Source: Nitrospiraceae bacterium (lineage in GTDB: Bacteria > Nitrospirota > Nitrospiria > Nitrospirales > Nitrospiraceae). From it: DNA of 64,000 bases. The notes under the pieces were generated by a model. That model saw only the letters and a program-made list of their open reading frames with translations. It made no database searches and was not told the origin of the DNA. Shown here in pieces: positions 36,758 through 48,069 of the stretch (position 1 is the stretch's first letter; each line of letters starts with the position of its first letter). The position numbers and the translations under genes were made by a program. The stretch spans positions 20,001 through 84,000 of the forward strand of contig JBFWWG010000009.1 of assembly GCA_050246315.1 (NCBI GenBank), in the 5' to 3' direction.

Positions 36758-39460
<2,703 letters not shown>

Positions 39461-39587
39461 AGTGGCTCTGTCATCTCGTCGGGGAATTCATCCTGTTTGC
39501 CTCAGGCGGGAGACCAGGCGTAATGGCCGGAGTATACAGCAAACGAAAGAACGAATCATACCAAGAAAGACGATCGGACTGCCAGAC

Positions 39588-39617
39588 TTGACAGGAGGCC
39601 GCCGAAATTCTTAGCAT
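39588..39617 (+). promoter_or_regulatory. Putative sigma70 promoter ahead of the His/Cys-rich leader ORF
   Basis: Perfect TTGACA followed by an 18-nt spacer and TAGCAT. Confidence 0.55.
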
Positions 39618-39625
39618 CAGGGCGG

Positions 39626-39982
39626 ATGTTTACGTACCTCTCGTCGAGATCCATTGCGATGGCCGCCAGCCGGTCGATCACCGGTGCGCGCCCTGTGGTT
39701 GCGCTCGTTCTCGTCGTCCTGCTGATCGGGCTCTCCGCAATGCTCTACCCGGCCAGCGTGCCCCATCTGATGCACCACGCGCAGCACCAGACGGGCACGC
39801 ACGGGACGGCTCTCTGTTCCTGGGAGTGTGCCGCGGGGCAGGTGGCGGACCACGGCGCCCTCAATCTGCCTTTTGTATCGCTCGCCTCAGAGCGCGCGTT
39901 TCTCTTGCAGGGCCGCGTCTCCCCCTCTCTGCTTGCGGTCGAAGGATCTTCCCGTTCCCCGCCATCCGTTCATACCGCCTAG
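39626..39982 (+). CDS. DUF2946/CruR/CutF-like leader protein ending in RSPP
   Basis: Hydrophobic N-terminal helix, HLMHHAQHQTGTHG, CSWEC, and C-terminal SSRSPPSVHTA. The start may be the ATG at 39659. Confidence 0.65.
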   Translation: MFTYLSSRSIAMAASRSITGARPVVALVLVVLLIGLSAMLYPASVPHLMHHAQHQTGTHGTALCSWECAAGQVADHGALNLPFVSLASERAFLLQGRVSPSLLAVEGSSRSPPSVHTA

Positions 39983-40099
39983 CTCTCCAAACCTGACATC
40001 CGTCGTTACGTTTCACGCGTAGACATGAAGGATGGTGAGGCGTCCCGCGCCGCCCGAGTGGGCGGGGGAAGGACCCATCCGTAAAGAAGGGAAAGGCAC

Positions 40100-41377
40100 A
40101 TGCGATCCGTCTCGATCGCCCGTTGCGCATTCGCATTATTGGTTGGCGCCATCGGCTCGTTCTTGGAAGCCGGGGCGGTGGATGGGGCGCCGACCCTGGA
40201 TGCGCTGATTCTTGATTCGCCGAAAACGCTGGTGGAAACCCCCGGGCAACTGTCGCCGCCGGCGCTCCAATTCAACCAGGAGGGCCATCTCTACGTGGCG
40301 TGGTTTGAAAAACAGGAGGGGGGAGCGAACGTTAAGGTGGCGCGGGTCGAGGGCGAAGCGGTCTCCAGAGCGATTCAGGTCAACCGCGACGGGGAGGGGC
40401 CTGGCGCCGTGCATCAATCCCCCGGTGTGGCGGTCGGAGCCGGCGGTAGCCTGTACGTGACGTGGTCGTCGGCCAATCAGACGCCGGGAGCGATGTTCGC
40501 GTCGGACCTGCGGCTCGCCCGATCAAGCGACGGCGGCCGCACCTTCGCATCTCCAGTTCCGGTCAATGACGATGGCCTGCCGATCTCGCACTCCTTTGAA
40601 GATATCACGGTCGTTCCCGAAGGAGATGTCTACCTGGCTTGGTTGGACGGACGAAACAAGGAACGGAGCGGAGCGGGAATTCTCTTTGCCCGATCCACGG
40701 ATCATGGCCGCTCGATCGAGCGCAATCTCCAGATCGACGGCATGGCCTGTCCCTGCTGCCGTCCCATGCTGGCGAAGGCCCCGGACGGCCACCTCTGGGT
40801 CGCGTGGCGAAAGGTGTTGGACGGGAACGTGCGCGACATTGTCATTGCCAAATCCGCCGATCGCGGCCGTTCCTTTGATCCCCCGAGGCTTGTGCGGAAG
40901 GACAACTGGGTCTTCACAGCCTGTCCGCACCGAGGGCCCTCGCTGGCGTTCGATCGGTTCGGGCGGATGTATGTCGGATGGTATACGGAAGGGACGGATG
41001 AGCAGCCGCGTCTCTTTGTGGCCACGTCCGACGACCAAGGAAACACGTTTACGGAGCCTGTTCCTCTGCATGTCTCCACGACGTCCGTGCCCGATCAGTT
41101 GCGGATGGCCGTGCATCCCGACGGAGCAATCGTTGCCGTGTGGGAAGAGCTGACCGGGGTCCGAAAGGAAACCGTGATGCGCCTCTCCATGGATCGAGGC
41201 CGATCATTCGGTCCGGTCAAGAAGCTGAGCGCCGCCGCCAAGGCCGAACACCCGACTGTGGCCATCGATCGGAGCGGTCGTGTCGCGCTCAGTTGGTCGG
41301 AACATACATTCCCGATGAACCGACTGTTGGTGCAACAGGGACAACTTGATTTGAACGAGATCACCGGAAAGCCATGA
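40100..41377 (+). CDS. Exported BNR/Asp-box repeat beta-propeller (sialidase-like fold) with CPCC and CPH motifs
   Basis: Repeated SxDxGxTF/SF Asp boxes (SSDGGRTF, STDHGRS, SADRGRSF, SDDQGNTF, SMDRGRSF); MACPCCRP; TACPHRGP. Confidence 0.8.
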   Translation: MRSVSIARCAFALLVGAIGSFLEAGAVDGAPTLDALILDSPKTLVETPGQLSPPALQFNQEGHLYVAWFEKQEGGANVKVARVEGEAVSRAIQVNRDGEGPGAVHQSPGVAVGAGGSLYVTWSSANQTPGAMFASDLRLARSSDGGRTFASPVPVNDDGLPISHSFEDITVVPEGDVYLAWLDGRNKERSGAGILFARSTDHGRSIERNLQIDGMACPCCRPMLAKAPDGHLWVAWRKVLDGNVRDIVIAKSADRGRSFDPPRLVRKDNWVFTACPHRGPSLAFDRFGRMYVGWYTEGTDEQPRLFVATSDDQGNTFTEPVPLHVSTTSVPDQLRMAVHPDGAIVAVWEELTGVRKETVMRLSMDRGRSFGPVKKLSAAAKAEHPTVAIDRSGRVALSWSEHTFPMNRLLVQQGQLDLNEITGKP

Positions 41378-42648
41378 CTCAAACGGGTGTGCTCATGACC
41401 TATGATGTTCGATGCCGGATATCGGGATGGGTAGCGTCCTCGGTGCTCCATTTGTGCGCCGTCGGCCTGGCCGTCATACTTGTCGAGGAAATGAAGCCTC
41501 CGGCCGATCCCTCTCCCTTTCAGTGGGAGGTCGCGCTGATTGAAGCCGTCAACAGGTCCGATTCTCCGCAAGCGGCGGCATCGCCAGCCGACCCGGCGCC
41601 CTCGCCTCCTAAGGTTGATCAGAGCGTTCCTCCAACACCCACAGTGGTGACCAGGCAGGTCCATACGAGGGTTGAGACAAGGGTGGCGCAGGGCCGGCCA
41701 GATCGAATCGATCGCCAGGTCCAGCCGGTTAAACAGCGAGAAGAAGCCGTTCAGGAACCGACGACGCAGGCCGTCCAACCCGTGATAGAAACCGCGATGG
41801 CCGACGAGCAGCAGCCCATCCAGGAGCGAGCTGCGATCCTGTCGGCGAATGCCGCGAAGACTGCCGTGGAATCCGTTCCGGTGGAGTCGCCTACGACGAT
41901 CGATCGAATCGAATCGACACCGGCCGTCGTCTCGACGGCAACGACTGACGTGGCTCGTACGGTCGCGGCCAATCACGCCGAGGAGTCTGTGAGTGCGCCT
42001 GTCGTTGAGCGCGGCGCACCGGTCGAGAGCGCCGCGCCTATCGTCGAGTCGAGGCAACCGCTGGTCGCCCAGGCCGTGACGAGCGGGGCGGAATCGGTCG
42101 TGCCGAAGGAGGAGCGCACCGCGGTCGTGACGGCACAGGAGATTTACGAGACGCCCGTACCGGCCACCGTGACGCAACAGGTGGCGGCCCTGCCTCCCGC
42201 GGCTGAGGCCGGATCGGTCAAGACGGCGCCGGAATCTCCACCGTCGGATGCGGCGCCGGAGGCCGTTCGGTCGCCCATTAGTGAGCAGAAGGAAGCGGTT
42301 GGACGCGAGACAGATCAGGTCGTTGCCAAATCGTCGAGACAGACACCCGGGACGAAGGCGGATTACCGTTGGTTGGCTGAATCGCTCTACCACCGCATTG
42401 CGGAGTTGAAGCGCTATCCGAGCGCTGCACGGCTGAACGGATGGGAAGGGAAGGTCGTGCTTCGCGCCGTGATCAAAGCCGATGGCAATCTGGCCGATCT
42501 GCGGGTTCAGAAGAGTTCCGGGTTCGATGCCTTGGATCAGGCCGCGCTCGACACGGTCCGCCAAGCCTGTCCGCTGCATCTGAAGCATGAGCTGGGCCGA
42601 CCCGAGGTGGTGGTGAGTTTGCCGATCGTCTACAGCTTGTCGAACTGA
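41374..42648 (+). CDS. TonB-family energy transducer with a long Pro/Ala/Glu/Val linker
   Basis: N-terminal SxxLH anchor (SSVLHLCAV) and TonB_C domain YPSAARLNGWEGKVVLRAVIKADG...SSGFDALDQAA. Confidence 0.88.
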   Translation: MTQTGVLMTYDVRCRISGWVASSVLHLCAVGLAVILVEEMKPPADPSPFQWEVALIEAVNRSDSPQAAASPADPAPSPPKVDQSVPPTPTVVTRQVHTRVETRVAQGRPDRIDRQVQPVKQREEAVQEPTTQAVQPVIETAMADEQQPIQERAAILSANAAKTAVESVPVESPTTIDRIESTPAVVSTATTDVARTVAANHAEESVSAPVVERGAPVESAAPIVESRQPLVAQAVTSGAESVVPKEERTAVVTAQEIYETPVPATVTQQVAALPPAAEAGSVKTAPESPPSDAAPEAVRSPISEQKEAVGRETDQVVAKSSRQTPGTKADYRWLAESLYHRIAELKRYPSAARLNGWEGKVVLRAVIKADGNLADLRVQKSSGFDALDQAALDTVRQACPLHLKHELGRPEVVVSLPIVYSLSN

Positions 42649-42664
42649 TGCAACGCGAGGGCTT

Positions 42665-43237
42665 GTGATGCGCGCGAACAGACTGAGCGGCGGAAGGATC
42701 AGAGCCCGGACCCTGTGGGGGCTGTGCCTGGCCGGTCTCATCCTCTGGATGCCGGGATGGCCGGCGCACGCGGATGATCCGATGACGGCCATGAAAATGG
42801 CGCGCGTCCCTCCGGGGACGACCGCGGTGTCATTCGAGCTGCCTTCCTTGGACGGTGGCAGGATGCGGTTGCAAGACTTTGCGGGGAAGGTCGTGCTGCT
42901 CAACTTCTGGGCCACCTGGTGCGGGCCATGCAGGGACGAAATGCCGTCGCTGGGACGATTGCGGGAGCGGCTCGATCCGAAGTCATTTGCGGTCGTCACG
43001 ATGACGACCGATGTGCAGAAGGAAGGGATTCGACAGTTCTTGGCGCAACTTCGAGTGATGTTGCCCGTCCTCTTCGACGAGCAGCAGGACGTGTCGCGCG
43101 CGTTCATGGTGCGTGGGCTGCCGACGACGGTGCTGATCGGGGCGGACGGCGCGCTGCTCGCTCGTGCCGTCGGACCGAGAGAATGGGACAGCGCGCCGGC
43201 CTTGGCAGTCATGCGACAGGCCTTAGCCCGGGAATAA
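42665..43237 (+). CDS. TlpA-like thiol:disulfide oxidoreductase
   Basis: KVVLLNFWATWCGPCRDEMPSL, VRGLPTTVLIG. Confidence 0.93.
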   Translation: MMRANRLSGGRIRARTLWGLCLAGLILWMPGWPAHADDPMTAMKMARVPPGTTAVSFELPSLDGGRMRLQDFAGKVVLLNFWATWCGPCRDEMPSLGRLRERLDPKSFAVVTMTTDVQKEGIRQFLAQLRVMLPVLFDEQQDVSRAFMVRGLPTTVLIGADGALLARAVGPREWDSAPALAVMRQALARE

Positions 43238-43303
43238 AGAGGGAACGGTGATCCGGGAGTGGAGCAGGCTCTCGCGAAGCCGCGCCATAGGTGGATGGAC
43301 GCT

Positions 43304-43431
43304 ATGCACAAGGTTCTCGAGCGCGTCAACGAGGCTGCGGAGGTGTTGAGCGTCAGCCGCTGGACGGTTTCCGGTGGCTGGAAGAAGGGAACCTGAGGGG
43401 AAGCAATCGACAGGGGAAGTCGCGGGTATAG
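43304..43431 (+). pseudogene. Frameshifted excisionase/HTH_17-like DNA-binding protein remnant
   Basis: RVNEAAEVLSVSRWTV in one frame continues as RWLEEGNLRGS in the next frame; a single-base loss at about 43371 explains it. Confidence 0.6.
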
Positions 43432-43492
43432 GCATCCGTCGGTCGGCCACCAGGGATGAAGGCGGACACCGCATCGGGCTGACAACACCTCC

Positions 43493-43813
43493 ATGGCACA
43501 GCGCACCTTCCGAATCCACATCTGGACGGCCGGTTACCTGGCGGCGACCTATGCTGTCCTGTTGCTGCTCGTGGCGGTCTGTTCCGCCGAGCCGCATCCG
43601 GCCTTCACCCATGCACACCACGGCCCGCAAGCCGTGCATTCGCTCCTCTGCGTTTGGGCCTGCCAAGCGGCCTCTGGGGAACAGATCGGCGCCGCCGAAG
43701 CGGTCGTGGCATACCAGCCCTTGATCTTCCTCGTCGCTCCATCTCACCTGACCTCTCTCCCTTCAATCGATCCAACCGGCTGTTCCAGCCGGGCTCCGCC
43801 ACAATCCGCGTAA
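43493..43813 (+). CDS. Second DUF2946/CruR/CutF-like leader protein ending in RAPP
   Basis: Hydrophobic helix YAVLLLLVAVC, HPAFTHAHHG, HSLLCVWAC, and C-terminal SSRAPPQSA; paralogous to 39626-39982. Confidence 0.68.
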   Translation: MAQRTFRIHIWTAGYLAATYAVLLLLVAVCSAEPHPAFTHAHHGPQAVHSLLCVWACQAASGEQIGAAEAVVAYQPLIFLVAPSHLTSLPSIDPTGCSSRAPPQSA

Positions 43814-44329
43814 CAAGCTCGGCGTATCCGGCGTTCGGGGAGTGCCGCATCCTGTCTCTGAAGCAGGCGCCTGGCCATCAACCCGTTGTCATCAGTCGCT
43901 ATTCAACATCCTGGTTTGCCGTGAAGGGCCATTCTGGCGCGTGTGCGTGGCGTCAGTGACAGGGGAACGATTGAGAGTGGGTCCGAGACGCCGGGCTGCC
44001 TCCTTGGCCTGGACTGACACAGGGAAGCGACGCTCATTCCCAAGGGTCCCTTCCTCCCCTCTCCCTTGGGGCGAGATGGAGATGGTTCATGAAGCCTGAC
44101 TTTCAGATCGACCTCGCGCGGATCGTATTGGCGACGGCGGTACGATGGGTCGCCGACCCTGCGACAGGGACGCTTTCACATCCCTATCTTCAGTGCGGTC
44201 TCCGAATGTGTGACGGCAAACGGCGGCGGGCAGCTTGTCGTCCAGATCGTGGGTCGGGTGTGCCACGACCAGCGGCATCACATCAAGGCGACCTAGTGAC
44301 GGTGCACGTAGAGACCGCGAAAGATTTTC

Positions 44330-44526
44330 GTCTAGCCGTACAGGCGGAGGCGGATGAAATCGCCCACCTGCCCGGCTGGATCGTGAGCAACGCGGAGGAT
44401 GGCGCCCTTCCCGGCAATCCGCTCGACGACTTCGAGGCCGTGCAGGCGATCCGCCTTCGAGTCAAGCAAGGCCGCCTGGTCCACGACTCAAACCGGCTCA
44501 AACCTGATGAAAGGATGCGTGGATGA
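44330..44526 (+). pseudogene. Possible degenerate amidohydrolase C-terminal remnant
   Basis: LPGNPLDDFEAVQAIRLRVKQGRLV resembles the amidohydrolase C-terminal GNPLxD...IxxVxKxGRxV pattern; no recognisable N-terminal domain. Confidence 0.35.
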
Positions 44527-46793
44527 TGAACGGGACATGGAGTCGAAGGTGTCGATGGCTGTTGTTCGCTGTCGCCGTCATCGCTGCGTGGGCGCCGCTC
44601 TCGCCCGAGGCGTGGAGCGCGGACGAAGAGACCGATGAGGAAACGCCGTTGATCGAGGTTGCGCCCGTGGAGGTGAGGGGGCAACGGATCGAAAACGTCA
44701 ACGACGTGAAGAAGGAGTTTGCGCGACGGCCGGCCAGCAATATCCTGATCGAAGAAAAGCAGATTACGGAGACTCGCGCGTTGAATCTGCAGGATGTCCT
44801 GCAATTCGCCCCGGGGGTGCGGTTTCAGTCCCGGTTCGGCGCGGATGAGGGCCAGTTTCAAATACGCGGCACCTCGCTTCGGAACAATTTTCACCATCGA
44901 GGGGTCAACATCCTGATCAACGGGATTTACTTCGGCGACGCGGACGGATTTTCGGATTTCGAGTCGATCGATCTGTTGGCGTACGAACGCATTGAAGTCT
45001 ACAAGGGTGCCAATGCCCTGCGGTACGGAGCCAATGCGATCGGCGGCGCGATCAATTTCGTGCCGCGGACCGGATACAGCGCCTCGCTGTTGCAAATGCG
45101 GTTGATCGGCGGCAGTTTCGGCATGGTGAGCGGGCAGGTCTCCAGCGGTAAGGTCACGCAACCTTTCAAAGTGGGGCACATGGACGCGACGATGGATTAC
45201 TACGTCAGCGTGAGCGCCAACCGCCAAGACGGGTTTCAGAGCAACAGCCAGCAGTCGCGGGAGCGTGTCAACGCCAATATCGGTCTGCAATTGGGATCTC
45301 ATCAGGAAATCCGGGCCTATTTTCTTCAGACGAACGTGGCCGAACGGATTCCCGGGGCTCTCACCACGGCTCAAATGTTCGCCGATCGACGACAAGCCGG
45401 AGGACAAACTCCCCCGCCGCTTCCGCCGCCCTTCTTCGCCTGTGTCCAGAACAACCAAACCTGCAACTATGGACGCTACTACAACTTGCAGCGGATCGGG
45501 CTGGCCTATCGGAATGAATTTTCGACGAACCAGTTCTTGGAAATCATTCCCTACTACTCCTACCAGTATCTCGACCATCCGATCTTTCAGACGATCAAAC
45601 AGGACAATAACAACGTCGGCGGCGAGATCCGCTACCGGAACGCGAACCACCTATTCGGCCGGCCGAACGTCTTCGTGGCAGGCGTTCAACCGCGCTACGG
45701 CGCTCAAGCACAATCGCGGTTCGTGAATATCAACGGCAACAACGGCGCGATGACCCAAAACGCGCATCTCAAAACGACCTACTTCGGGGCGTATGCCGAA
45801 GATCAGTTCGATGCTACGGAGGCGCTGACCCTGGTCGCGGGCGGCCGGTGGGACTACAGTGGGCGGCAGGGCACGATCCAGAACTTTGGGCCGGCGGGCA
45901 ATCCGTTCAATCCCAACACCCCGTCCGTCCCCACCACCCTGCAACAGCCACTTCACGATTTTGACGCCCTCAGCCCCAAGCTCGGGTTCGTGTACCGGAC
46001 GTCGCCGCATGCCCAACTCTATTTCAACGCCAGCCGGGCCTATGAGGCGCCGATCAATGTGGAGCTGACATCGGCCTTCAATCCGGACGGCAGCCCTAAC
46101 ACCGGCTTCCTAAACCTGGACGCCCAACGGGCCTGGCAGTTCGAAATCGGACATCGCGGCAAGGCCGCCGATGGACGGTACTTCTGGGACCTCACGGTCT
46201 ACGATCTCGAAATGCAGAAAGAGATCATCACCAACGTGATCAACAACACCAATACGTTCCGTAACGCCAATGCGACGAGACACACGGGAGTGGAAGTCGG
46301 CGGTGCCATCGTGGTGGCGAAGGGGCTGTGGGAAAAGGGACCCGGGCAGGAGGCGGATCAGGTCACCATGCGGGCGGCCTATACCTGGTCGCTGTTCCAA
46401 TTTACCGACGACGTATTTGGAGCGATGACGACCGGAGGGCCCAATGTCCTCATCGCCAAGAGCGGAAATCGCATTGCCGGGGCGCCGGAGCACAATTTGG
46501 CCTACGAGGTCCGCTACGATCATCCGAGGGGCTGGTGGGTGGCACCCAGCTTCGAGTGGGTTCCGAGCGGGTTCTACGTGGACTATCTGAACACGGTGAA
46601 GAATCCCTCCTACTTCGTGCTTCATCTGAGGTCGGGCTGGAACCTGACCCAGCACCTGACCTTCTATGCGGAGGCACGAAATCTGACGGATAAAACCTAT
46701 GCCGGCGCCGTAGTCGTCAACGATCCGTTGTTCCGCTATGCCAACGTGGCGCAAGGGATCAGCGGCTATGCGGGGCTCGAATATAAGTTCTAG
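44523..46793 (+). CDS. TonB-dependent outer-membrane receptor (YncD-like plug motif)
   Basis: Signal peptide; plug QIRGTSLRNNFHHRGVNILINGIYFGDADGFSDFESID..RIEVYKGANALRYGANAIGGAINF; C-terminal aromatic GLEYKF. Confidence 0.93.
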   Translation: MMNGTWSRRCRWLLFAVAVIAAWAPLSPEAWSADEETDEETPLIEVAPVEVRGQRIENVNDVKKEFARRPASNILIEEKQITETRALNLQDVLQFAPGVRFQSRFGADEGQFQIRGTSLRNNFHHRGVNILINGIYFGDADGFSDFESIDLLAYERIEVYKGANALRYGANAIGGAINFVPRTGYSASLLQMRLIGGSFGMVSGQVSSGKVTQPFKVGHMDATMDYYVSVSANRQDGFQSNSQQSRERVNANIGLQLGSHQEIRAYFLQTNVAERIPGALTTAQMFADRRQAGGQTPPPLPPPFFACVQNNQTCNYGRYYNLQRIGLAYRNEFSTNQFLEIIPYYSYQYLDHPIFQTIKQDNNNVGGEIRYRNANHLFGRPNVFVAGVQPRYGAQAQSRFVNINGNNGAMTQNAHLKTTYFGAYAEDQFDATEALTLVAGGRWDYSGRQGTIQNFGPAGNPFNPNTPSVPTTLQQPLHDFDALSPKLGFVYRTSPHAQLYFNASRAYEAPINVELTSAFNPDGSPNTGFLNLDAQRAWQFEIGHRGKAADGRYFWDLTVYDLEMQKEIITNVINNTNTFRNANATRHTGVEVGGAIVVAKGLWEKGPGQEADQVTMRAAYTWSLFQFTDDVFGAMTTGGPNVLIAKSGNRIAGAPEHNLAYEVRYDHPRGWWVAPSFEWVPSGFYVDYLNTVKNPSYFVLHLRSGWNLTQHLTFYAEARNLTDKTYAGAVVVNDPLFRYANVAQGISGYAGLEYKF

Positions 46794-46959: not shown

Positions 46960-48069
46960 GTGATCAACCGGTGGTCGGGGGAAGAGGTCCGTGCGGACAT
47001 TCGAGCCGTGGCCGTTCCGCCGGTCAAGAGAGTACGGGGCCGGCTGATGGCGGGACTCCTGCCGGCGATCCTCGTCGCGCTTTCAGCGACTGCCGAAGCC
47101 GTTCCATCCGAGAGCGCGACTCGTCAATATGAGCGCGGCCTTCAATTGGTGAAGGAGCGGCAGATCGACGGGGCGATCGAAGCCTTCACCCGGGCGACCG
47201 AAGCGGACCCTCGATTCGCAGAGGCCCACTATCAGTTGGGACTCGCGTTGCTGACGGGCAAGAAACAGCGGCAGGAGGCGGCGGATGCGTTTCGCCGGGC
47301 GCTGTCCGCCTCTCCCAAACATGTCGAGGCGCGATATGAGTTGTCGATCTTGGCGCTGCAGGACGGACAGACGCGGGAGGCCGAGCAGGGTTTCCTCCGC
47401 GTGATCGAGCTGGCCCCCCAACATGAGCAGGCCTATCTGGAACTCGGTCAACTCTACGAACGCCGACCCGCACCGGAGTTGGCGATCAAGACATATCGAG
47501 CCTTGCTCACGGTCGATCGGGATCACCCGGAGGCGCTCTATCGGCTGGCCGGTCTTGCGGACGCCTCGGGAGACGCCGCCGGGGCCACGCGCTATCTGGA
47601 CCGGCTGTTGAAAGCGCGCCCGAGGCATGCCGACGGCTGGTATCTCAAAGGCCGCATCGCCGAAAGGCACAACGATCTGGTGGAAGCGGCCTACGCCTAT
47701 CGCCAGGCCATTCAAGCCAAACCGGGATTCATCGACGCACGCTACAACCTGGCCTTTATTCTCCGGAGTCAGGGGCAGACAGCGGAGGCCGCCGAACAAT
47801 TATCGGATATCATCCGACTGAAGCCGGAGCATGCCGATGCCCATATGAATCTCGGGTTGGTCTATACAAGTCTCAACCGCCTCGATGATGCCGAGCGAGA
47901 GTACGAAGCGGCGGTCACCTTCAACCCGGACCTCGCCGAAGCTCATTACAATTTCGGCGTGTTTTTGGAACTGCATCGCAAGGACATGGTTCGCGCCCTC
48001 GCGCAATATCGGAAGTATCACGAACTGGGAGGGCGGGATGATCGGGTCGAGCGCATCCTCGGCCCCTAA
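46960..48069 (+). CDS. Tetratricopeptide repeat protein, probably exported
   Basis: About 8 TPR-like repeats (AEAHYQLGLALL, ADAHMNLGLVY, AEAHYNFGVFL); signal-like MAGLLPAILVALSATAEA. Confidence 0.88.
   Translation: MINRWSGEEVRADIRAVAVPPVKRVRGRLMAGLLPAILVALSATAEAVPSESATRQYERGLQLVKERQIDGAIEAFTRATEADPRFAEAHYQLGLALLTGKKQRQEAADAFRRALSASPKHVEARYELSILALQDGQTREAEQGFLRVIELAPQHEQAYLELGQLYERRPAPELAIKTYRALLTVDRDHPEALYRLAGLADASGDAAGATRYLDRLLKARPRHADGWYLKGRIAERHNDLVEAAYAYRQAIQAKPGFIDARYNLAFILRSQGQTAEAAEQLSDIIRLKPEHADAHMNLGLVYTSLNRLDDAEREYEAAVTFNPDLAEAHYNFGVFLELHRKDMVRALAQYRKYHELGGRDDRVERILGP

Follow-up and report, generated by a model that had tools for sequence, protein, structure and literature searches.

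Work in Bordetella and Rhodobacter has characterised the class of RAPP metal-sensing arrest leaders, which has also been surveyed in other phyla and provides the closest described counterparts of the element considered here. This element is a leader open reading frame (ORF) of 106 residues, which we call L2, that lies upstream of a TonB-dependent receptor gene in a window of 64,000 nucleotides (nt; contig 9, positions 20001-84000) from the 4.39-Mb genome of a Nitrospiraceae bacterium (59.7% G+C). The closest public relative of this genome is a metagenome-assembled genome labelled 'Nitrospiraceae bacterium'. In Bordetella pertussis, the DUF2946 protein CruR (Bp2923) is the leader of cruR-bfrG(crtA)-bp2921; its residues C93 and R139 are 46 residues apart (45 intervening, a number that stays within 1-2 across the family), changing this spacing by 5 residues impairs regulation, and the 3' part of its ORF contains a bubble of C over G (C>G) to which its Rho utilization (rut) site maps (Roy et al. 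2022, PMC9426467). CutF, the leader of cutFOG in Rhodobacter capsulatus, depends on its signal peptide and carries a CXXXC motif (Ozturk et al., bioRxiv 10.1101/2025.02.05.636593). RAPP and RGPP themselves are the strongest known core arrest motifs and are avoided in proteomes; the arrest is robust and unrelieved by EF-P, and the motifs show C-terminal enrichment in small secreted proteins encoded 5' of genes for TonB-dependent receptors and thioredoxin-domain proteins. These points come from a report that includes a 2025 census of RAPP/RGPP upstream ORFs covering Gram-negative phyla (Fujiwara et al., PMC12992588). The arrest motif is defined as (R/Q/H)-(A/G/D)-(P/G/S)-(P/G) (PMC10987492), and toeprints place the third residue of RAPP-type motifs in the ribosomal P site (Fujiwara et al. 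2024, PMC10987492).

From the comparison set out below, we consider it fairly likely that L2 is a metal-sensing arrest leader that controls the genes downstream of it. By analogy, L2 appears to be best explained as a sensor peptide of the CruR/CutF kind that acts in cis, rather than as an enzyme or structural protein, and on the same grounds we place it in the known class, as a lineage-specific member that is invisible to Pfam. The mechanism is not new; what is new here is the definition of the family, an inventory of five copies with contrasting cargos in one genome, and the reconstruction of a decayed spacer.

Sequence and motifs of L2

L2 occupies positions 43493-43813 on the forward strand and encodes MAQRTFRIHIWTAGYLAATYAVLLLLVAVCSAEPHPAFTHAHHGPQAVHSLLCVWACQAASGEQIGAAEAVVAYQPLIFLVAPSHLTSLPSIDPTGCSSRAPPQSA, a protein that starts with MAQRTF and ends with SSRAPPQSA before the stop codon. 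It consists, in order, of an export segment, a His cluster, CVWAC, RAPP, and a final Q-S-A. An earlier note on this DNA, made from the sequence alone, had described an ORF with HAHH, CVWAC and an exact RAPP at this place, and all three motifs were found again: HAHH at residues 40-43 (43610-43621), CVWAC with its CXXXC spacing at residues 53-57 (43649-43663), and RAPP at residues 100-103 (43790-43801), leaving three residues before the stop. Residues 12-30 (43526-43582), which follow Arg7, form a hydrophobic stretch that reads as an N-terminal export signal or membrane anchor. AlphaFold2 predicted a confident helix for residues 3-31 (predicted local distance difference test, pLDDT, ~90), the remainder having pLDDT values of 46-64 and the predicted template modelling score (pTM) being 0.29. 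L2 has the export signal expected of CruR/CutF leaders, as judged from this reading together with the AlphaFold2 helix. A putative metal-binding box spans 43595-43663 and comprises H35, H40-A-H-H43, H49 and C53-V-W-A-C57, as in the family consensus. Arrest is predicted at the RAPP codons, cgg gct ccg cca, where Pro102 would occupy the P site and Pro103 the A site. From the first Cys (C53) to R100 the distance is 47 residues, with 46 residues intervening from C53 and 42 from C57.

The orthologs of L2, which range from 59 to 100% identity, retain all of these motifs. Conservation of RAPP had been named in the earlier note as a check on its proposal, and RAPP is present in 5/5 orthologs, down to 59% identity, and is invariant in protein and DNA alike. 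Over the same range the orthologs share the segments HSLLCxWACQAAS and SIDPTGCxxRAPP. L2 is identical across four assemblies and 89% identical to the copy of the closest relative. Given RAPP in all five orthologs and a Cys-to-Arg spacing of 46-47 residues, the combination of motifs is far beyond chance. Scans of L2, of its paralog L1 (see below) and of the ORF in the downstream gap against Pfam and NCBIfam yielded no match.

A family of leaders in the Nitrospiraceae

We built a family profile from 15 sequences and searched it against 1.84 billion, which gave 274 cluster representatives at E<=1e-3; the best 150 matches were aligned, and the family statistics refer to these. Their consensus is HxxHHAHHxAxTHxxxLCxWxCAAGQ ... 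SR[A/G]PP, with a median length of 103 residues. CxWxC occurs in 135/150 members, the first Cys being invariant and the Trp and second Cys at least 90% conserved. R-x-P-P stands near the C-terminus in 144/150, in 143 of them with 1-10 residues after it. The motif most often takes the form RAPP (73 members), RGPP being almost as common (62) and RSPP, the form found in L1, a minority (8). Both motifs could be located, and the distance between them measured, in 140 members: first Cys and Arg are 46 residues apart in 114, 47 in 24 and 49 in 2, that is, 46-47 in 138/140. Mean column identity of the alignment is only 11%, and the linker sequence is hypervariable.

The profile matched 117 of the 121 Nitrospiraceae genomes, with 1-9 copies in each, as well as 85/85 high-quality Nitrospiraceae genomes and 38/39 genera. 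A pattern scan of 185,579 species returned 201 confirmed loci. The best 80 of these 201 are essentially all labelled Nitrospira, Nitrospiraceae or Nitrospirota, with one 'uncultured bacterium' and one 'Nitrosospira', and they include N. moscoviensis, N. defluvii and N. lenta. Several leaders per locus are common (176 leader ORFs across 110 loci), and in these 110 loci the median spacer from a leader to the next ORF of at least 130 residues is 99 nt. The first downstream genes encode Phenol_MetA_deg-type outer-membrane barrels in 44/150 cases, AhpC/TSA-redoxin proteins in 29 (most of which also match SCO1/SenC) and TonB in 17. In relatives, family members also often occur in tandem about 1 kb apart, for instance at G102:C6:50395 and 51371, at G091:C1:675577 and 676567, and at G059:C3:128685, 129694 and 131422. 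In such tandem units each leader is followed by a short gene, commonly for a Phenol_MetA_deg-type barrel or a TlpA/Sco-like redoxin.

Comparison with CruR, CutF and other arrest peptides

The arrangement of an upstream ORF followed by a TonB receptor gene had been likened to cruR-bfrG, and the likeness held: an exported Cys/His ORF, RAPP, a spacer and a receptor gene correspond to the system of PMC9426467. Like CruR, L2 is a small exported protein that stands first in an operon with a TonB-dependent receptor (leader, remnant, TonB-dependent receptor, TPR; the operon is predicted from gene order). In both, the Cys motif leads into a linker whose sequence varies but whose length is fixed (47 residues in L2, 46 as the mode of its family, 46 in CruR), and L2 further resembles CruR in having RAPP three residues from its end, a C>G bubble, a long spacer and no predicted fold. 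All the architectural features by which Roy et al. define CruR, among them the first position in metal-related operons, are shared by the family. It differs in having CxWxC where CruR has CXXC, with an extended His box (HxxHHAHH..TH) ahead of it, in being unrecognised by the Pfam model, in reaching up to 9 copies per genome, and in belonging to the Nitrospirota, a phylum absent from the list of Roy et al. The L2 locus differs, moreover, in that its receptor is not of the CrtA type and is not followed by a PepSY_TM gene, in a reconstructed ancestral cargo of cytochrome P460-like genes, a small gene and an amidohydrolase gene, and in a spacer of 709 nt of pseudogene DNA versus 162 nt for CruR.

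The Pfam model in question is PF11162 (DUF2946), whose gathering score is 23.7 bits. A six-frame scan of the L2 genome with it gave no match at the L1 or L2 loci, one paralog in this genome scored 15.5 bits, and only 2/151 Nitrospirota genomes match the model. Two PF11162-positive proteins were seen in other Nitrospirota families, at L132:1486-1884 (-) and L133:1441-1842 (+). They have a single Cys or CxC, not CxWxC, end in SRGPP and ARGPP, and have a Cys-to-Arg distance of 46 by count. In the literature collection searched, no paper has both terms DUF2946 and Nitrospira.

With CutF, L2 shares the CXXXC motif and the superfamily of metal-sensing leaders; both also have a Sec signal and a proline-based arrest motif at the C-terminus. 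CutF stalls at PPP in an EF-P-dependent manner, unlike RAPP-type arrest, which EF-P reportedly does not relieve; it opens a hairpin over the ribosome-binding site belonging to the next gene, whereas no such hairpin was found after L2; and its target is a detoxifying oxidase that is copper-induced. L2 also falls within the definition of the RAPP/RGPP (RQH) peptides, being a protein of 106 residues with an export segment and RAPP three residues before the stop. Like the RQH peptides ApdA and ApdP, it is a small secreted or membrane protein encoded 5' of another gene, with R-[A/G/S]-P-P near its C-terminus. Those studies treat Sec/YidC monitors and Streptomyces examples and describe neither the His/CxWxC box nor the 46-residue ruler.

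RNA features of the leader and the spacer

A C-rich, G-poor stretch (C 45%, G 13%) runs from 43713 to 43790 on the forward strand, ends at the Arg codon of RAPP and is a candidate rut region. In a C>G scan with the 78-nt window of Roy et al., this stretch ranked at the 99.96th percentile of all 78-nt windows genome-wide. In 5/5 leaders of this genome the C>G maximum falls at the ORF's 3' end (97.9th-99.96th percentile), and a Rho gene is present (711 bits). The spacer after L2 folds worse than 199 of 200 shuffles (z=+1.97). A stable regulatory hairpin after L2 was rejected on this ground and because an alignment of three sequences held no convincing covariation. A riboswitch or other known RNA within 39400-44700 was likewise rejected, since Rfam returned a single match at chance level. 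No consensus promoter or intrinsic terminator was found between 43100 and 44700, although promoters in Nitrospira may not follow the consensus that was scanned for.

The gap between L2 and the receptor gene

The stop codon of L2 and the ATG of the receptor gene are separated by 709 nt. This gap is a genuine and fixed feature, a mosaic of decaying pseudogenes whose parts are all read here on the forward strand. It begins with a leader-proximal untranslated spacer (43814-44004) that is 83-85% identical to L002:6322-6516 of the closest relative, the alignment from 43782 to 44004 covering the end of the leader and the first 190 nt of the spacer. Next comes a remnant of a gene for a 135-residue protein, consisting of its upstream region and first codons (43981-44111; blastn 72.5% over 131 nt, E=6e-15). 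The intact gene is located at L020:6435-6842 in G001, a complete genome of the same genus, just before the amidohydrolase gene, and the N-termini of remnant and intact protein, MKPDFQIDLARIVLA and VKPGFLIDRARIALA, agree. A second remnant of this gene lies at 44227-44294 (blastn 70.6%, E=0.002); the frame 44210-44293 reads GQLVVQIVGRVCHDQRHHIKA, which aligns to residues 46-66 of the intact 135-residue protein (E=5e-8). The 290 nt from 44005 to 44294 can therefore not be regarded as unrelated filler, a possibility that was rejected once the more distant relative had been compared.

The rest of the gap derives from an amidohydrolase gene. Fragment 1 (44295-44415) corresponds to about residues 252-293 of 468 and is 90% identical to L002:7370-7491, or 75% over 52 residues at the protein level; fragment 2 (44403-44520) corresponds to about residues 430-468 and is 83-86% identical to L002:7901-8018 (E=4e-15 at the protein level). 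Approximately 410 nt between the two fragments were deleted in frame. Absent from the remnant are the N-terminal 245 residues, which presumably included the metal-binding His motif of the enzyme, and no intact amidohydrolase of this type was found elsewhere in the genome. The earlier note had seen an amidohydrolase-like remnant running up to the receptor start, which stands, and had taken it as the trace of one lost gene, which does not, as the gap holds remnants of two. It had also suggested comparing the gap with relatives, and the closest relative has an intact amidohydrolase gene of 468 codons at the position where the window keeps two pieces.

A mosaic ORF of 145 codons (44089-44526) runs through these remnants. 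It starts at the start codon of the 135-residue gene, passes the second remnant of that gene out of frame, and holds both amidohydrolase fragments in frame, to which its protein-level matches with the amidohydrolase are restricted (E=3e-20 and 4e-15). Its end, CGT GGA TGA, overlaps the receptor ATG as ATGA, and the closest relative has a comparable stop/start overlap at its receptor, apparently TGATG. The 709-nt gap is also found in three other assemblies from different samples, two of them identical and one with a 1-nt deletion, and for this reason an assembly artefact was rejected. In the variant gap (L135:1197-1633; Logan SRR11577119) the 1-nt deletion is accompanied by three substitutions, the rest being identical, and the mosaic ORF is split into ORFs of 68 and 76 residues. 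This frameshift shows directly that the mosaic ORF is free of coding constraint; together with a middle part outside the ancestral frame, it led us to reject the view of the ORF as a maintained gene.

Receptor and operon history

The receptor gene (44523-46793, +) is intact and encodes 756 residues with Plug and TonB barrel domains. Its product is 98% identical to that of the closest relative and 88% identical to that of G001, two genomes of the same genus, in both cases over the full length, and is under strong constraint. The nearest solved structures are YncD (6v81) and PqqU (9c4o), matched over the full length at ~1e-27. Assignment as a CrtA (BfrG)-type copper transporter was rejected, because the match to CrtA of B. 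pertussis (PDB 9RVQ/9RVX; match to 9rvq) reached only 4e-12 and was confined to the plug. The gene after the receptor encodes a TPR protein, not PepSY_TM as is usual for the CrtA type; it lies at 46960-48069 (+), 3' of the receptor gene, and is syntenic in relatives.

Gene orders in relatives allowed the history of the locus to be reconstructed. In the closest relative (L002) the order is SecA, leader 1, BNR, TonB, TlpA-like redoxin, leader 2, amidohydrolase (468 residues) and receptor. In G001 it is a receptor, a spacer, the leader-2 ortholog, a cytochrome P460-like gene and a gene for 100 residues, followed by a cytochrome P460 gene, the 135-residue gene, amidohydrolase, receptor and TPR. 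Within L020:4527-6842 of G001, two cytochrome P460-like genes, the 100-residue gene and the 135-residue gene, which has a GRFCEYQ motif, follow the leader. Since the window keeps a piece of the 135-residue gene and the closest relative keeps the amidohydrolase gene, genes were lost independently in the two lineages. The ancestral operon would have comprised the leader, two cytochrome P460-like genes, small genes, amidohydrolase, receptor and TPR, and several deletions in the present lineage would have spared the leader, the proximal spacer and the stop/start overlap. Control of the receptor was probably retained after these deletions.

A truncated remnant of an HTH_17 (excisionase/MerR-like) gene was observed just 5' of L2, at 43304-43396 (+). 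Its translation, MHKVLERVNEAAEVLSVSRWTV, corresponds to the first 22 residues of an intact HTH_17 protein of 77 residues at L005:2540-2773 (E=2e-10). Intact HTH_17 genes stand directly 5' of leader-2 orthologs in relatives, and in the related contigs L005 and L006 a small HTH gene occupies the spacer position ahead of the leader-2 ortholog. The remnant region is kept in the closest relative, where no gene is called. This gene may once have encoded the transcription factor of the L2 operon.

Other leaders in the same genome

The paralogous leader L1 (39626-39982, +) has 118 residues, with HHAQH, CSWEC and RSPP followed by five residues, and heads genes for BNR, TonB and TlpA-like redoxin proteins. 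The architecture of L2 had been described in the earlier note as that of this first leader, and we indeed found the same order of features, with 30% identity over 82 residues (tblastn E=0.005 in the window). Orthologs of L1, one of them from Nitrospira tepida, have RAPP or RSPP.

With three more copies from a motif scan of the genome, there are five leaders in total, and the idea of a modular device that is reused per operon gains from this number and from the 1-9 copies in most Nitrospiraceae genomes. The copy at C8:102445-102768 (-) lies 5' of genes for a CarboxypepD_reg-type TonB-dependent receptor and TonB. The copy at C1:145054-145530 (+) is His-rich, has no CxW and lies 5' of a CusB/CusA-like RND efflux pair. 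The copy at C2:348934-349245 (-) precedes an unknown gene of 453 codons, DedA/VTT, a pyridine-nucleotide-disulphide oxidoreductase and DUF3047. The presence of uptake and efflux cargos under one sensor family implies opposite regulatory polarities.

Proposed mechanism and alternative explanations

In the mechanism that we propose, a ribosome translating L2 would stall at Pro102/Pro103 (Pro102 at 43796-43798), as with other RAPP/RGPP peptides. The ribosome exit tunnel holds about 30-40 residues. At the stall, the His/Cys box would be 45-67 residues away from the peptidyl-transferase centre and thus freshly out of the tunnel; with Pro102 in the P site, Cys53 would be 49 and Cys57 45 residues from this centre, and the His box just outside. 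Binding of metal to the box would alter the pull on the nascent chain and thereby the length of the stall, and on analogy with the known leaders we think this metal is more probably copper than anything else. Without metal, the stalled ribosome would shield the leader RNA at its C-rich 3' end, and the polymerase, from Rho, and the receptor gene would be transcribed. With metal, the stall would be relieved, and Rho would load and terminate transcription within the untranslated spacer of ~275 nt, so that the receptor is switched off. This Rho-based polarity, in which metal represses, is taken from CruR because the target is an uptake receptor; we hold it tentatively and would give it slightly less than an even chance.

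Several observations weigh against the proposal as a whole or in part. CutF belongs to the same superfamily and has the opposite polarity, which makes the direction of control a guess, and for most proteins having RAPP is not enough to stall ribosomes (PMC10987492). No obvious Shine-Dalgarno sequence was found upstream of L2, the C-richness of its 3' end could be due in part to Pro, Ser, Leu and Thr codons, and its distance to the receptor gene far exceeds the family median. PF11162 gave no match to L2 or L1 even at E<=10, and only 9/150 family members match it at E<=0.01. When the family profile was compared by hhalign with the two DUF2946-positive proteins described above, only the C-terminal SRxPP aligned, with a probability of 2-6%. 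Homology with CruR is therefore architectural and not demonstrated; at the sequence level it is only hinted at.

Three other explanations have to be weighed against a CruR-like leader. L2 could be a positive switch of the CutF type, in which bound metal would lengthen the RAPP stall; by exposing a ribosome-binding site downstream or by preventing termination, the stalled ribosome would make the downstream genes metal-inducible. The CXXXC motif of CutF resembles CVWAC and CutF needs its signal peptide (bioRxiv 10.1101/2025.02.05.636593), and the paralog 5' of the CusB/CusA-like efflux pump would need metal induction. We nevertheless regard such a switch as quite unlikely for L2. Its target is an uptake receptor, where repression by metal is expected, no hairpin that hides a ribosome-binding site was found in a spacer less structured than its shuffles, and the next start codon is 275 nt away, beyond the reach of local helix melting by a stalled ribosome. 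The C>G end, Rho, the unstructured spacer and the uptake-receptor target together favour the logic of CruR over that of CutF. A different view would be that L2 acts as a free-standing metal-binding protein, periplasmic or membrane-anchored, that serves as a chaperone or buffer and in which RAPP has no regulatory role. The conserved His/Cys box, the export signal and neighbouring genes for periplasmic redox and metal proteins would fit this, but conservation in the family is limited to the motifs and the linker length, no confident fold is predicted, and conserved motifs at a fixed distance within variable sequence are what one expects of a ruler rather than a domain. Since, in addition, R-x-P-P is found 1-10 residues from the stop in nearly all members and the leader consistently comes first, 5' of other genes and with a short spacer, we consider a free-standing protein very unlikely.

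The gap raises the question of whether L2 still acts on the receptor. The earlier note had suggested that loss of a gene may have uncoupled the regulation, in which case the receptor gene would depend on signals of its own in the gap or be constitutive, and L2 would be a decaying relic. It is true that the two genes adjoining the leader were destroyed, that 709 nt is an atypical distance for the family, and that the mosaic ORF has its own GGAG and ATG at 44089. However, the identity of L2 in four assemblies, its intact motifs and its similarity to the copy of the closest relative do not suggest a relic. L2 still has its C-rich 3' end and the spacer its first 190 nt, the deletions beginning only beyond this conserved part, and the mosaic ORF keeps both the start codon of the 135-residue gene and the amidohydrolase stop that overlaps the receptor ATG. 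The receptor, too, is strongly constrained, and the gap has no consensus promoter, a weak argument given that Nitrospira promoters may deviate. With leader, C-rich end, proximal spacer and receptor all conserved, uncoupling is not favoured and seems unlikely to us, and a leader that still controls its receptor is the reading we prefer.

Implications for metal homeostasis in Nitrospira

Members of Nitrospira play key roles as nitrite oxidisers and as complete ammonia oxidisers, with enzymes that require copper and iron. The family can be annotated by a simple rule, namely CxWxC followed 46-47 residues further on by R-x-P-P that lies 1-10 residues before the stop, in combination with the profile. 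The natural operon variants, moreover, place the same leader at very different distances from the same receptor. In a wider view that we regard as rather doubtful, this nascent-chain sensor family would be the main layer of metal-homeostasis control in the Nitrospiraceae, with opposite outputs set by the downstream RNA. If this view is true, the module would shut off uptake receptors at L2 and at the copy on contig 8 and turn on the CusBA-like efflux pump at the copy on contig 1, and the question of CruR versus CutF polarity could be addressed within a single organism. The deletion series (leader with six genes; with two; with a remnant and the receptor) would then show how far downstream a leader can reach. 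Altogether, our analysis is consistent with the view that Nitrospira carry a pervasive, unannotated branch of CruR/CutF-like sensors, which genome annotations overlook because Pfam misses them.

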